Source of the DNA: a virus
Taxonomy: Duplodnaviria > Heunggongvirae > Uroviricota > Caudoviricetes
DNA: 5,153 nt
Direction: 5' to 3' (one strand)
IMG/VR virus record: IMGVR_UViG_2690316028_000001
Span: 1 to 5,153 of that record
Positions 2,098 to 4,801 of this stretch are shown here, in pieces; positions within the stretch are counted from its first letter, which is position 1, and each line of letters opens with the position of its first letter. Under the pieces are notes generated by a model. That model ran no database searches and had not been told where the DNA came from. It worked only from the letters and a program-made list of their open reading frames with translations. The translations under genes and the position numbers were made by a program.

Positions 2098-2234
2098 CAT
2101 TCGAATCCTACTTTGCTGATCATCTTCGTCTGCGATGGACTCGGTTACGCATCTATCGTCACCCGGGTTCATTTGCTACGGACTACCGAATACTGAAGAA
2201 TTACGTGAAAACTTATGCTGGAGAAGCGCTATGA
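2094..2234 (+). CDS. ylcG: Small basic protein, 46 aa, YlcG-like (DLP12 rusA-Q intergenic ORF)
   Basis: Not in the ORF track. ATG 2094 overlaps the rusA stop (ATGA) and its TGA at 2232-2234 overlaps the Q ATG (ATGA). Translation [46 protein letters not shown]. Same size and position as DLP12 ylcG. Confidence 0.5.
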
Positions 2235-3061
2235 ACCTTGAAAACACAGTGAAATACCACTTCGCAAAATCCACGCTGATTAGCGATTCTCCGCGCGCTA
2301 CCGCCTCCGATTCACTGACCGGTACCGACATCATGGCGGCAATAGGCATGACTCAGGAACGCGCTGCTATGGGGTACAGTGCTTTCCTCGGCAAGATGGG
2401 CATAAGCAATAACGACCGGGATCGGGCTATCGGACTGCTGGCTGAGTACGCGATGACCAAATGTGACAAGGTTGCCGCGCTGCGTAAGTTGGATTTCGGG
2501 GTTAAGCCTCAGGTGATGTACCAGTTGGCCACCTTCGCATTTGAGGATTATTCCCGCAGCGCAGCCAGTGTAAAACGGTGCGATTGCTGCAACGGTGAGG
2601 GCTTTATTGATGCTGAGGTATTCAGTATGAAAACCAATACGCCGGCACATGCAAAAGAAATCATTAAGGCATCAAAAGCGTTTGGTTTGAAGGTGATACC
2701 TTCGCAGCACCAAAACAGGCGTGAGGTAAAAGAGATAACGCGCGTTCTCTGTCCTCAGTGCAAAGGGAAAAAAGCCATCAGTTGCGCATGTAGTGATTGC
2801 CGTGGCCGTGGGAAAGCGGTGAATCAGAAGGAAACGAAGCAGCAAGGCGTTCCAGTATTCAGCACCTGCAAGCGCTGTGGCGGTCGCGGATATGAGCGCA
2901 TCCCGTCAACTGAGGCCCACGCAGCTGTTTGCCAGATTACGGATGTAATCAGCCTGGATACGTGGAAGAAGTCCGTTAAACCGTTCTATGATCAGCTGAT
3001 TACGAAATTCGATATTGAAGAGGCATGGGCAGAAAACCAACTGAAACAAATAACACGATAA
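2231..3061 (+). CDS. Q: Late-gene antitermination protein Q (long Q family, Cys-rich zinc-finger region), 276 aa
   Basis: N-terminus [33 protein letters not shown]... resembles enterobacterial prophage Q proteins as I recall them. GGAG at 2220-2223 seven nt before ATG 2231. Four CxxCxG-type Cys pairs. Immediately followed by a PR'/tR'-like region and the lysis genes. The ORF-track start at 2135 has no RBS. Confidence 0.85.
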   Translation: MNLENTVKYHFAKSTLISDSPRATASDSLTGTDIMAAIGMTQERAAMGYSAFLGKMGISNNDRDRAIGLLAEYAMTKCDKVAALRKLDFGVKPQVMYQLATFAFEDYSRSAASVKRCDCCNGEGFIDAEVFSMKTNTPAHAKEIIKASKAFGLKVIPSQHQNRREVKEITRVLCPQCKGKKAISCACSDCRGRGKAVNQKETKQQGVPVFSTCKRCGGRGYERIPSTEAHAAVCQITDVISLDTWKKSVKPFYDQLITKFDIEEAWAENQLKQITR

Positions 3062-3087
3062 CGGCTATGGAAGTTAATTCCAGCTAT

Positions 3088-3125
3088 TTACTTTTCCCGA
3101 ATCTGTGTTAATTTTATCCCAACGA
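3088..3125 (+). promoter_or_regulatory. PR'-like late promoter with expected qut (Q-utilisation) site
   Basis: -35-like TTTACT at 3088-3093 and extended -10 TGtTAATTT at 3106-3114, followed by CAACGATGGGTTAATTCGCTCG, which closely resembles the lambda PR' initial transcribed/pause region as I recall it. Exact +1 not determinable here. Confidence 0.45.
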
Positions 3126-3317
3126 TGGGTTAATTCGCTCGTTGTGGTAGTGAGATAAAAAGAGGCGGCGCTTACTACCGATTCCGCCTAGTTGGTCACT
3201 TCGACGTATCGTCTGGAACTCCAACCATCGCAGGCTGAGAGGTCTGTAAAATGCAATCCCGAAACAGTTCGCAGGTAATAGTTAGAGCCTGCATAACGGT
3301 TTCGGGATTTTTTATTT
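3121..3317 (+). ncRNA. 6S-like short late leader transcript (PR' to tR')
   Basis: About 195 nt between the putative PR' start and the tR' U-tract, the length class of the lambda 6S RNA. The sequence looks near-identical to my recollection of the lambda PR'-tR' leader. Confidence 0.4.
3255..3317 (+). terminator. tR'-like intrinsic terminator (the terminator Q-modified RNAP reads through)
   Basis: Outer stem 3257-3265 with 3299-3307 (tcccgaaac / gtttcggga), inner stem gcagg 3271-3275 with cctgc 3288-3292, followed by TTTTTTATTT at 3308-3317. Confidence 0.7.
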
Positions 3318-3392
3318 GGGTCAGTCGTATAAAGGTCATTACGGAAGGCTGTTAACCTTCTTATCGTGGTTCGAGTCCACGCTGTCCCGCCA
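3318..3392 (+). tRNA. tRNA-Asn (anticodon GUU), phage-encoded
   Basis: Manual cloverleaf. Acceptor 3318-3324 with 3382-3388 (6/7 bp, one U-U mismatch), U8, D stem 3327-3330 with 3339-3342, GG in the D loop. Anticodon stem gaagg 3344-3348 with ccttc 3356-3360, loop CUGUUAA (anticodon 3351-3353). T arm cgtgg-TTCGAGT-ccacg (3365-3381), discriminator G3389, encoded CCA 3390-3392. Confidence 0.65.
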
Positions 3393-3442: not shown

Positions 3443-3468
3443 GCCCACCGCGCCGTGGGCTTTTTTAT
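3443..3468 (+). terminator. Intrinsic terminator downstream of the tRNA
   Basis: GC-rich stem gcccac 3443-3448 with gtgggc 3455-3460, 6-nt loop, followed by TTTTTTATT from 3461. Confidence 0.6.
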
Positions 3469-3898: not shown

Positions 3899-4331
3899 CG
3901 GAATTGCTCTGATAAAAAAATTTGAAGGTTGTCGGCTGACTGCTTACCCCGACCCCGGAACGGGAGATGCGCCGTGGACCATCGGCTATGGCTGGACCCA
4001 TCCGGTTGACGGAAAGCCAGTAAAGCGCGGTATGACTATCGACCAGCAAACCGCTGACAGGCTTCTGAAAACAGGGCTTGTTGGTTATGAGAATGACGTG
4101 CTGAAAGTTGTCAGGGTGAAGCTGACACAAGGCCAGTTCGACGCACTGGTGTCGTTCGCTTACAACGTTGGGTCGCGTGCTCTTTCCACATCTACACTGC
4201 TGAAAAAGCTGAATGCTGGCGATATAAAAGGCGCGGCAGATGAATTTCTGCGCTGGAATAAATCAGGCGGAAAGGTGATGCCGGGGCTCACGAATCGCCG
4301 CAAGGCAGAGCGAGCTCTGTTCCTGTCATGA
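3882..4331 (+). CDS. Endolysin, GH24 phage lysozyme (P22 gp19-like), 149 aa
   Basis: N-terminus [24 protein letters not shown]...TIGYGWT and C-terminus ...[11 protein letters not shown] resemble P22 gp19 lysozyme (recalled), with the T4-lysozyme-type Glu-8aa-Asp...Thr catalytic arrangement. No signal or SAR sequence. GGGAG at 3871-3875 before ATG 3882; 17-nt overlap with the holin 3' end. Confidence 0.9.
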
Positions 4332-4801
4332 TTAGCGCACTGGTTAAGCGTTACTGGCTGCAGTTGCTGGTGCTGGCGTTAATCGGCGCACTGGCTTTCT
4401 TCGTGAACCACTACCGCGACAACGCCATCACCTACAAAGACCAGCGCGACAAAGCCACCAAAAGTCTCCGCCTGGCTAACGACACCATCAAAGACATGCA
4501 GACCCGTCAGCGCGATGTCGCTGCACTGGATGCCAAATACACGAAGGAATTGTCCGATGCTAAAAAGACCATTAACGATTTGCGTCGTGATGTCGATTCT
4601 GGCGCTAAACGGCTGCGCATCGCTGCAACCTGCCCTGGAGTGCCAAAAGCCACCTCCTCCACCGGCGTGGATGATGCAGGAGCCCCCGAACTTACTCCAG
4701 ACGCTCGACGGAATTATTTCGATCACCGGGACGGAATCGCAACCGCTGACAAAATGATTCGCGGCATGCAGGACTACATCAAAGAGCAGTGTCTTAAGTG
4801 A
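4328..4801 (+). CDS. Rz: Rz i-spanin (inner-membrane spanin subunit), 157 aa
   Basis: ATG 4328 overlaps the lysozyme stop (ATGA). Hydrophobic N-terminal segment ([17 protein letters not shown]) followed by a charged, coiled-coil-like periplasmic domain. Position and architecture are typical of Rz. Confidence 0.85.
4557..4757 (+). CDS. Rz1: Rz1 o-spanin (outer-membrane lipoprotein) embedded in the +1 frame of Rz, 66 aa
   Basis: [22 protein letters not shown] gives a lipoprotein signal with lipobox LNGC, followed by the proline-rich [13 protein letters not shown] (lambda Rz1 has [14 protein letters not shown] as recalled). AAGGA at 4543-4547 before ATG 4557. The ORF-track start at 4515 is upstream of the signal peptide and less likely. 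Confidence 0.8.

Follow-up and report, generated by a model that had tools for sequence, protein, structure and literature searches.

The window analysed here is a stretch of 5,153 nucleotides from a virus assigned to Caudoviricetes (IMG/VR record IMGVR_UViG_2690316028_000001). It encodes a Q antiterminator carrying four motifs of the CxxCxGxG type, and the question raised by this locus is whether these motifs build a DnaJ-like centre with two zinc ions, unlike the single zinc finger of lambda Q, as had been proposed from the sequence.

Translation of the open reading frame gave a protein of 276 aa whose label as a Q antiterminator was confirmed by a Pfam scan (PF03589 'Antiterm', 150 bits against a cut-off of 26.7, E 2e-44), by a full-length match to phrog_127 ('anti-termination protein Q-like', E 2e-103) and by the lambda Q chains of the PDB (phmmer, E 2e-47). 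The alignment with lambda Q begins at residue 1 and is collinear in two blocks, residues 1-113 with lambda Q 1-113 and residues 185-276 with lambda Q 116-207, which take in the N-terminal nozzle-forming segment, the body helices and the C-terminal HTH region. In lambda Q, residues 61-113 belong to the body, the first ~60 residues are refolded to form the nozzle and the HTH lies in the body, within residues 153-207 (PMC9388147). The Q protein of phage mEp237 is 99.3% identical to that of the window, and its annotated gene shares the same start codon. An upstream start at position 2135 (308 aa) was rejected because the homology with lambda Q starts with the M1 of the shorter, 276-aa protein, and because the annotated mEp237 gene uses the 276-aa start, with an ATGA overlap with the stop of the upstream ORF.

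The full-length AlphaFold2 model (pLDDT 90.6) recovered the lambda Q fold, a four-helix body with a zinc-ribbon arm, with helices at residues 31-44, 46-56, 60-80 and 92-107 in the N-terminal part and at 226-234 and 242-275 in the C-terminal part. When this model was compared to the PDB with Foldseek, 7UBN chain Q (E 4e-16, TMt 0.80) and 7UBM chain Q (TMt 0.84) were matched, and nothing significant was found besides lambda Q entries; the BFVD viral structure library gave no match at E <= 0.001. Genes for NinB, NinE, YbcO and RusA lie upstream of Q and those for a holin, a lysozyme and Rz downstream, the context expected for the lambda Q family (end of the nin/early-right region, late promoter, pause element, terminator and lysis genes). 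By homology and context, the gene is an ordinary, normally annotated lambda-family Q antiterminator of a lambdoid phage or prophage. The features of the locus are listed in Table 1.

Table 1. Features of the Q gene and of the DNA downstream of it, in coordinates of the window.
Feature	Position	Strand	Basis or remark
Q late-gene antiterminator gene	2231..3061	+	276 aa plus stop; lambda Q family, long four-knuckle form
Residues 1-113, N-terminal segment and first half of helical body	2231..2569	+	collinear with lambda Q 1-113
Residues 114-184, inserted module, predicted second zinc ribbon, without lambda Q counterpart	2570..2782	+	alignment gap between lambda 113 and 116
Knuckle 1, C117-DC-C120-NGEG	2579..2602	+	strict CxxCxGxG
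Residues 125-173, variable hairpin/linker cassette between knuckles 1 and 2	2603..2749	+	spacing and identity variation
Knuckle 2, C174-PQ-C177-KGKK	2750..2773	+	partial, CxxCxGxK (last G replaced by K)
Knuckle 3, C187-SD-C190-RGRG	2789..2812	+	strict; equals lambda Q C118/C121 (CRDCHGTG)
Residues 195-212, interior of lambda-like zinc-ribbon arm	2813..2866	+	two short strands and a helix: E195-197, H199-205, E210-212
Knuckle 4, C213-KR-C216-GGRG	2867..2890	+	strict; equals lambda Q C144/C147 (CGRCKGVG)
Residues 221-276, second body half, with lambda HTH-homologous region and C-terminal helix	2891..3058	+	alignment to lambda Q
Putative late promoter PR' with Q-binding element (QBE)	3087..3126	+	alignment with lambda PR' and annotated phi80 pR'/Q site
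Putative PR' -35, TTTACT	3087-3092	+	by alignment
PR' spacer TTTCCCGAATCTGTGT, candidate QBE	3093-3108	+	by alignment
Putative PR' extended -10, TGt-TAATTT	3106-3114	+	by alignment
Sigma-dependent pause element AACGAT	3121-3126	+	lambda-like
Lambda-like 6S leader and tR' terminator	3121..3313	+	stem about 3258-3306, then T-run

The four motifs CDCCNGEG, CPQCKGKK, CSDCRGRG and CKRCGGRG (knuckles 1 to 4) are present in the protein, three of them exact and one (CPQCKGKK) partial, just as predicted. They occupy nucleotides 2579-2890; the interval first given, 2580-2891, pointed to the right region and was one base off. The separation of ~55 residues announced between the first two motifs is real, but it measured 49 residues between the two motifs proper, or 57 when counted from Cys117 to Cys174. 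When the protein was shuffled 200,000 times with its composition kept, at least one strict motif appeared in 0.17% of the shuffles and at least three in none, and the eight motif cysteines were invariant in 34 of 34 diverse four-motif homologues. A chance origin of the motifs was rejected on these two grounds; the four-knuckle feature of this Q protein is real. In knuckle 2, C174, C177 and G179 are invariant among the 34 four-knuckle homologues, while knuckle 3 is written C-x-C-x-G-x-G in many homologues.

Comparison with lambda Q (4MO1, 7UBJ-7UBN; PF03589) showed the same fold, gene position, two-knuckle arm and knuckle spacing of 26 residues. However, lambda Q has 207 aa and four ligand cysteines, whereas the Q protein of the window has 276 aa, eight such cysteines and a module of ~70 residues between the positions of lambda residues 113 and 116. 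Residues C187, C190, C213 and C216 align with the lambda arm ligands C118, C121, C144 and C147, and they are invariant. The 'single zinc finger' of lambda Q is itself made of two CxxCxGxG motifs, CRDCHGTG and CGRCKGVG, which correspond to motifs 3 and 4, so the DnaJ-like signature is not special to the window. The proposed centre would differ from that of lambda Q in having a second site in addition to the lambda one, but not in its motifs.

The arrangement, which the original prediction set apart from lambda Q, is to a large extent already known among Q proteins, as it is the commonest form of the lambda Q family. Four knuckles were found in 29 of the 48 near-full-length representatives of clusters made at 50% identity, and four-knuckle Q proteins also occur in phi80, SfV, Gifsy-2, HK225, ES2, mEp237 and Stx2a/Stx2c phages. 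The long-form Q proteins of mEp237, HK225, phi80 (gp17), SfV, Gifsy-2 and the 'QuuQ'-type Stx2a/Stx2c phages share the same layout with spacings of 13 and 25-26, are annotated as Q or late gene regulator like that of the window, and differ from it in detail only, for example in the type of hairpin cassette. The third knuckle is CxC in phi80 and Gifsy-2 Q and CxxC in the window. Among homologues, residues 114-184 are present or absent as a whole, and the natural two-knuckle forms miss knuckles 1 and 2 together and are scattered among four-knuckle clades in a neighbour-joining tree built without support values. These comparisons indicate that the module is a family-wide feature and not one peculiar to this phage, the lambda/P22-type Q being the form without it, and the module is probably ancestral in the family.

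We then considered how the eight cysteines could be shared between metal sites. The module consists of knuckle 1, a long beta-hairpin with a helical tip and knuckle 2 (E114-116, E125-136, H139-150, H157-160, E162-173 and E182-184 in the model, pLDDT 88-96). In both AlphaFold2 models, that of the full protein and that of a fragment (pLDDT 93.9), knuckles 1 and 2 come together at the base of a beta-hairpin of 12+12 residues, on which two short helices form a cap. The model and the alignment together show the layout of a zinc ribbon in residues 114-184, with an antiparallel hairpin between two CxxC knuckles and with invariant cysteines. The strands matched in the model were 114-116 with 182-184, 125-136 with 162-173 and 195-197 with 210-212, which puts knuckles 1 and 2 at one end of the hairpin and thereby favours the pairing 1-2/3-4. 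The unit formed by knuckles 3 and 4 superposed on the zinc-containing arm of lambda Q with an rmsd of 1.3-1.7 A over about 41 residues. The AlphaFold2 models carry no metal ions. The 1-2/3-4 pairing is drawn from the secondary-structure layout, homology and indel patterns.

The distances between first cysteines in the family vary from 14 to 63 residues for knuckles 1-2, are always 13 for knuckles 2-3 and are 25-26, with few exceptions, for knuckles 3-4. In three of the two-knuckle forms (P0159, P0261 and P0269), the first knuckle is of the CxC type and is unmistakably knuckle 3. The indel and spacing pattern implies, as far as alignments can tell, a tandem pairing (1-2/3-4) in preference to an interleaved one. 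The first knuckle of lambda Q can be read as a hybrid of knuckles 1 and 3 that arose by deletion between repeats, as the sequence on its N-terminal side carries on the flank of knuckle 1 and the sequence on its C-terminal side the flank of knuckle 3. Because this reading is possible, the ancestral pairing is not fully fixed by homology alone. An origin of the module by duplication of a lambda-like arm was rejected, since a profile-profile comparison of modules 1-2 and 3-4 aligned only 11 columns, in which knuckle 1 stood against knuckle 4 at a probability of 79%, and gave no sign that a whole module had been duplicated.

With eight invariant cysteines in four knuckles, two Cys4 zinc sites are the natural reading, and the Cys-x-x-Cys motifs, four in all, most likely build a pair of adjacent zinc ribbons. 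C117, C120, C174 and C177 would, in all likelihood, jointly hold a second Zn ion, while C187, C190, C213 and C216 would form the zinc site known from the lambda Q crystals; the two sites would stand in tandem, rigidly linked by the invariant spacing of 13 residues between knuckles 2 and 3. From the model and the alignment, zinc binding by knuckles 1 and 2, and hence a second zinc site, is plausible. Knuckles 1 and 2 might instead be metal-free, held as a disulfide or a conserved turn, with zinc bound by knuckles 3 and 4 only. The imperfect end of knuckle 2 (GKK) in the window would suit such an arrangement, and the reachable literature gives no metal analysis of a long-form Q, no zinc stoichiometry experiment on any of them and, for Q with zinc and DnaJ, phi80 Q and quuQ, no description of a second zinc site. 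However, the four cysteines of knuckles 1 and 2 are invariant where the region is only 29-60% identical, which is typical of metal ligands, and the geometry at the base of the modelled hairpin is that of a classical zinc ribbon. In a cytoplasmic phage regulator, reliance on a disulfide is also unlikely. We consider a metal-free pair of knuckles very improbable.

The likeness to DnaJ was examined at the levels of motif, profile and fold. The cysteine-rich domain of DnaJ/Hsp40 (PF00684; 1EXK, 2CTT) has four CxxCxGxG repeats and two zinc ions per domain, with a short fixed spacer between consecutive knuckles of different zinc centres, and in these respects it resembles the Q protein; a DnaJ-like signature was noted earlier for a lambda-Q-like phage protein (PMC5313236). 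It differs in that its knuckles are paired 1-4/2-3 in an interleaved, V-shaped fold, as opposed to the tandem 1-2/3-4 pairing inferred for Q, and in that it works in an Hsp40 setting, as opposed to a transcription factor that binds DNA and RNA polymerase. A true DnaJ-type domain in Q, interleaved and perhaps with chaperone or thiol-oxidoreductase properties, would agree with the three strict repeats and the partial one, and with the fixed spacing of 13 between knuckles 2 and 3, which resembles that of DnaJ motifs 3-4. Scans with the Pfam model DnaJ_CXXCXGXG (PF00684) aligned it across motifs 2-4, but at 27.9 bits, below the curated cut-off of 32.7, and the NCBIfam DnaJ models fell far under their cut-offs (E 0.009-0.9); precomputed public annotations nevertheless assign PF00684 (newer PF00684.26) to most close homologues. 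The profile of the region matched 2CTT (E 6e-4) and 1EXK (E 3.6e-5), the latter across two adjacent knuckles only.

Comparison of the folds did not extend this likeness. Foldseek gave no significant match of the high-confidence fragment model to a DnaJ cysteine-rich domain (best DnaJA2, E 0.76, TM 0.14, rmsd 9.9 A), and its structural matches were to the lambda Q arm only. The unit of knuckles 3 and 4 fits that arm, in which the same four cysteines share one zinc, and a 1-2 spacing that ranges from 14 to 63 is ill-suited to a segment obliged to pair with a fixed 3-4 segment. No J domain, G/F region or C-terminal client-binding domain was found in the Pfam and NCBIfam scans of the protein. The DnaJ signature thus stood at the level of the motifs but not in fold or topology, and a DnaJ-type domain is quite improbable. 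The two-zinc centre first proposed is plausible from its four knuckles and eight invariant cysteines, although not in the DnaJ-type arrangement. A lambda-family Q that acts like lambda Q, with an inserted second zinc ribbon in tandem (1-2/3-4) found across the family, is the reading we regard as likely.

Downstream of the Q gene, a simple consensus promoter scan passed over the putative PR', in which the -10 TAATTT matches the consensus at only 3 of 6 positions; the scan being silent, the call rests on the alignment with lambda and with phi80, where a pR' is annotated together with a Q site lying between its -35 and -10. The 6S/tR' segment is nearly identical to the lambda DNA downstream of Q. 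Comparison with lambda showed that the pause element, 6S leader and tR' are nearly identical while the PR' spacer is TATTGAATAAAATTGGG in lambda and TTTCCCGAATCTGTGT in the window. The latter spacer recurs unchanged in mEp237 and HK225, and almost unchanged in ES2, 640R1 and Stx2a_EH1910. In mEp237 and HK225 the Q gene lacks a lambda-type 6S/tR' segment, whereas in the window it is joined to one.

By homology, the Q protein would bind the QBE between -35 and -10 through the HTH of its body and its zinc-ribbon arm, dock on RNA polymerase during its pause at the AACGAT element and travel with it as a nozzle on the RNA-exit channel. The modified polymerase would then ignore tR' and later terminators, and the lysis and morphogenesis genes would be expressed. 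By analogy, QBE binding and antitermination should proceed as they do with lambda Q.

The module could itself be a determinant of DNA specificity, with the hairpin reading extra base pairs of a QBE longer than, or different from, that of lambda Q. Residues beside the zinc ligands of the lambda Q arm touch QBE positions 11-13 (PMC9388147), the two-zinc region is very rich in positive charge (mean net +11) and no part of the protein varies more than the hairpin, which could suit an element of specificity. However, the hairpins of window/mEp237 Q and HK225 Q are unrelated (37% identity, other length) while the region from -35 to -10 is identical. Those of ES2, 640R1 and Stx2a_EH1910 differ again, with nearly the same spacer (TTTCC(C/G)GAA(T/C)CTG), and phi80 has a hairpin of the 640R1 type (57% identity) yet a different site, TCGCGGA. 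Upstream of -35 there is no conserved DNA, and the window and mEp237 differ there despite their 99%-identical Q proteins. These arguments concern the hairpin and not the knuckles themselves, and we judge a role of the module in DNA specificity improbable.

Identities along the protein showed how the hairpin has changed partners. Window and HK225 Q are 89% identical in the rest of the protein and 37% in the linker, while HK225 and P0125 Q are 44% identical in the rest of the protein and 61% in the linker. On these identities, the hairpin between knuckles 1 and 2 is a cassette that recombines, and its type does not follow the putative Q-binding site.

The ~70-residue module (114-184), the predicted second zinc ribbon, is inserted exactly at the junction of body and arm. 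In lambda Q, the contact with the beta' zinc-binding domain of RNA polymerase is made by residues 110-112, 117 and 122-126, and the arm contacts QBE positions 11-13 (PMC9388147). Our best guess, by analogy, is that the module serves as a structural brace at the hinge of the arm and enlarges the basic surface beside the contact with the beta' zinc-binding domain, the hairpin tip being solvent-exposed and free to vary. It is rather unlikely, in our estimation, that the second ribbon makes a functional contact missing in lambda Q, with the polymerase near the beta' zinc-binding domain, with NusA or with nascent RNA. If it did, exchange of cassettes would tune host range, factor dependence or escape from host defence independently of QBE specificity, and the lambda Q structures would show a pared-down loading complex typical of a minority of the family.

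For the phage of the window itself nothing changes, its Q gene being normally annotated. To our knowledge, the four-knuckle layout of Q has never been solved structurally and its second ribbon is structurally uncharacterised. All of the structural knowledge of the Q family and most of the mechanistic knowledge come from lambda Q, which is the short, minority form. It is useful to know that the additional part is probably a tandem second ribbon and not a domain of the DnaJ type, and that promoter specificity probably does not lie in its hairpin. The module lies at the hinge of the DNA-binding arm, exactly at the place of contact between lambda Q and the beta' zinc-binding domain, and the long form that carries it makes up most clusters of the family, including the Q proteins of phi80 and of Shiga-toxin phages, in which Q activity controls toxin release.

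The results of our Pfam search confirmed the Q antiterminator label originally given to the protein, PF03589 (Antitermination protein Q) scoring 150 bits against a cut-off of 26.7, and phrog_127 'anti-termination protein Q-like' (PHROGs) was matched over the full length (E 2e-103). The only strong matches among PDB sequences were lambda Q chains (7UBM/7UBN, 4MO1 and 7UBJ-L), and residues 1-113 and 185-276 of window Q aligned with residues 1-113 and 116-207 of lambda Q, respectively. The gene is near-identical to a deposited phage gene, the 'late gene regulator Q' of mEp237 (97.7% identity in DNA and 99.3% in protein), and protein identity to HK225 Q was 79%. The genes flanking Q, NinB, NinE, YbcO and RusA upstream and holin, lysozyme and Rz downstream, are a typical lambdoid phage set. 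Window Q is a lambda Q family protein by every criterion that can be tested computationally.

Translation gave three strict CxxCxGxG motifs and one partial motif (knuckles 1 to 4), as originally noted; the coordinates first given were off by one base, and the ~55 residues first reported between motifs 1 and 2 are a spacer of 49 residues, or 57 when counted between the first cysteines of the two motifs. One strict motif occurred in 0.17% and three in none of 200,000 composition-preserving shuffles of the protein, so the four-motif pattern is genuine and chance does not explain it. Cys185 is located two residues upstream of knuckle 3.

Features of the window in and around the Q gene
Feature	Position (nt)	Strand	Details
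ORF, 205 aa	44-661	+	no Pfam match at E <= 0.001
ORF, 46 aa	2094-2234	+	stop overlaps Q start codon as ATGA
Q gene	2231-3061	+	276 aa (translation)
Motif 1	2579-2602	+	C117-DCCNGEG, strict CxxCxGxG
Hairpin/linker cassette	2603-2749		residues 125-173
Motif 2	2750-2773	+	C174-PQCKGKK, partial CxxCxGxG
C-A-C-S-D-C	2783-2800		residues 185-190
Motif 3	2789-2812	+	C187-SDCRGRG, strict CxxCxGxG
Motif 4	2867-2890	+	C213-KRCGGRG, strict CxxCxGxG
Region with mosaic junction	3087-3313
Putative PR' -35	3087-3092	+	TTTACT
Putative PR' spacer	between -35 and -10		TTTCCCGAATCTGTGT
Putative PR' -10	3106-3114	+	TGt-TAATTT
Pause element	3121-3126	+	AACGAT
tRNA-Asn (GTT)	3318-3392	+	ARAGORN and Rfam, 55 bits; directly after tR'-like terminator
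GC-rich hairpin and T-run	3443-3460		terminator-like; between tRNA-Asn and holin gene
Rz gene	4328-4801		named by Pfam
ORF, out of frame within Rz	4515-4757	+	lipobox-like LALNGC and proline-rich stretch
ORF, 66 aa	4873-5073	+	no Pfam match at E <= 0.001

The arm of lambda Q (residues 114-152) is a crystallographic zinc ribbon with ligands C118, C121, C144 and C147 (PMC9388147). Its sequences CRDCHGTG and CGRCKGVG are already two CxxCxGxG motifs, and the DnaJ-like signature is therefore a trait of the whole Q family; it was noted earlier for the lambda-Q-like protein of phage Loki (PMC5313236). In our alignment these two motifs corresponded to motifs 3 and 4 of window Q, with a spacing of 26 residues in both proteins, whereas residues 114-184, a module of ~70 residues carrying motifs 1 and 2, were absent from lambda Q. 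The insertion point lies between lambda residues 113 and 116, at the body/arm junction.

AlphaFold2 modelled the whole protein with a mean pLDDT of 90.6 (37-sequence alignment) and residues 108-226 alone with a pLDDT of 93.9; the models carry no metals, and Cys pairing was read from the layout of the elements. Both models had the order strand 114-116, knuckle 1, strand 125-136, helices 139-150 and 157-160, strand 162-173, knuckle 2, strand 182-184, knuckle 3, strand 195-197, helix 199-205, strand 210-212 and knuckle 4. In both, the strands pair up by length (3/3, 12/12 and 3/3), which points to a long hairpin whose base brings together knuckles 1 and 2. The module is thus modelled as a classical zinc ribbon, followed by the lambda-type ribbon, and its predicted ends lie next to each other, as they should in a domain that has been inserted. 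Two tandem Cys4 sites are predicted, knuckles 1-2 and 3-4. Homology alone leaves this pairing unfixed, since the first knuckle of lambda Q can be read as a hybrid of knuckles 1 and 3.

The interleaved centres of DnaJ (1-4 and 2-3) would pair the knuckles differently. The profile of the fragment did match the DnaJ cysteine-rich domain 1EXK (E 3.6e-5), in an alignment confined to Q knuckles 2-3 and DnaJ motifs 3-4. Foldseek, however, matched the full model to lambda Q only (7ubn_Q, E 4e-16, TMt 0.80; 7ubm_Q, TMt 0.84) and the fragment to the lambda Q arm only (~41 residues, rmsd 1.3-1.7 A, 44-48% identity), with no significant DnaJ-type match to the fragment (DnaJA2 7ZHS, E 0.76, TM 0.14, rmsd 9.9 A), and DnaJ_CXXCXGXG reached only 27.9 bits in Pfam, under its cut-off of 32.7. 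The proposed likeness to DnaJ therefore holds for the repeat motif and fails on the remaining criteria, and the hairpin layout, together with the missing fold match, argues against interleaved centres and for the tandem arrangement.

A scan covering 1.84 billion cluster representatives in full returned 251 relatives; of the 48 representatives with a length of 195-300 aa, 29 had four knuckles and seven had two. The spacing of knuckles 2-3 was 13 residues in all four-knuckle proteins compared and that of knuckles 3-4 was 25-26 residues with few exceptions, while that of knuckles 1-2 ranged from 14 to 63 residues across relatives. The eight cysteines were invariant in all 34 diverse four-knuckle sequences aligned (29-71% identity to window Q within this region). 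Named phages with this form include phi80, whose Q is an experimentally studied protein, SfV, Gifsy-2, Stx2a- and Stx2c-converting phages, HK225, ES2 and mEp237, and PF00684 (DnaJ_CXXCXGXG) is already present in the precomputed database annotations of most close homologues. The long architecture is already widespread and visible in databases, and lambda Q is a stripped-down minority short form. Our search of the accessible literature, which did not extend to Guo & Roberts 2004 on phi80 Q, turned up no account of a Q protein with a second zinc site.

Knuckle 3 takes the form C-x-C-x-G-x-G in many members, one residue shorter than the CxxC type, and three two-knuckle forms keep a CxC-type first knuckle, which is therefore knuckle 3. 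In a crude NJ tree built from the regions shared by both forms, the two-knuckle proteins (lambda and homologues P0162, P0184, P0261, P0269 and P0159) were dispersed among four-knuckle lineages, and P0159 cleanly lacks the module yet is a close relative of four-knuckle P0134. The module therefore behaves as a discrete unit that was lost or gained several times.

The hairpin has evolved separately from the rest of Q. Identity fell from 89% in the rest of the protein to 37% in the hairpin between window and HK225, and rose from 44% to 61% between HK225 and homologue P0125 and from 37% to 57% between 640R1 and phi80. Several unrelated hairpin types, compared across these proteins and homologue P0137, were shuffled among otherwise distant Q proteins; the hairpin is a recombining cassette within a single gene.

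These swaps amount to a natural test of promoter specificity. We assigned the putative late promoter by aligning the region with lambda PR' and with the pR' and Q site annotated in phi80. From the -35 through the pause element, window and HK225 were identical despite their unlike hairpins; mEp237 differed from the window by one base, after the -10, and the two shared no conserved DNA upstream of the -35. ES2, 640R1 and Stx2a_EH1910 had nearly the same promoter with other hairpins, whereas phi80 had a 640R1-type hairpin and a different site, TCGCGGA. The hairpin is therefore unlikely to determine specificity for the Q-binding element (QBE).

A mosaic junction was observed inside the late promoter region. 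The window matched mEp237 and HK225 from the -35 to the AACGAT/GGGTTAAT pause element. Beyond it, as far as the tR' T-run, the window differed little from the lambda 6S leader, whereas in mEp237 and HK225 another leader follows, which is short and terminated; the crossover seems to fall within the pause element common to them. In the related phage 640R1, a tRNA-Met occupies the slot of the tRNA-Asn. The ATGA overlap of the 46-aa ORF, which had no match in Pfam, suggests translational coupling with Q; the mEp237 RefSeq record has a 'YlcG family protein' overlapping the Q match. The ORF nested within Rz resembles an Rz1 o-spanin.

In lambda Q, residues 110-112, 117 and 122-126 touch the beta' zinc-binding domain of RNA polymerase, and residues close to the zinc ligands touch QBE positions 11-13 (PMC9388147). 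The module interrupts the middle of the equivalent surface. The 'RSAA' segment preceding it is conserved (90% or more of sequences have S110 and A111), and the two-zinc region is strongly basic (mean net charge +11). Our best inference is that the module would have a structural role, bracing or extending the arm hinge and the surface that contacts RNA polymerase, with a variable tip left exposed. These results would not surprise a specialist; the useful and testable point is the minority status of the lambda Q form, together with the predicted placing of the additional ribbon at the interface with RNA polymerase and DNA.
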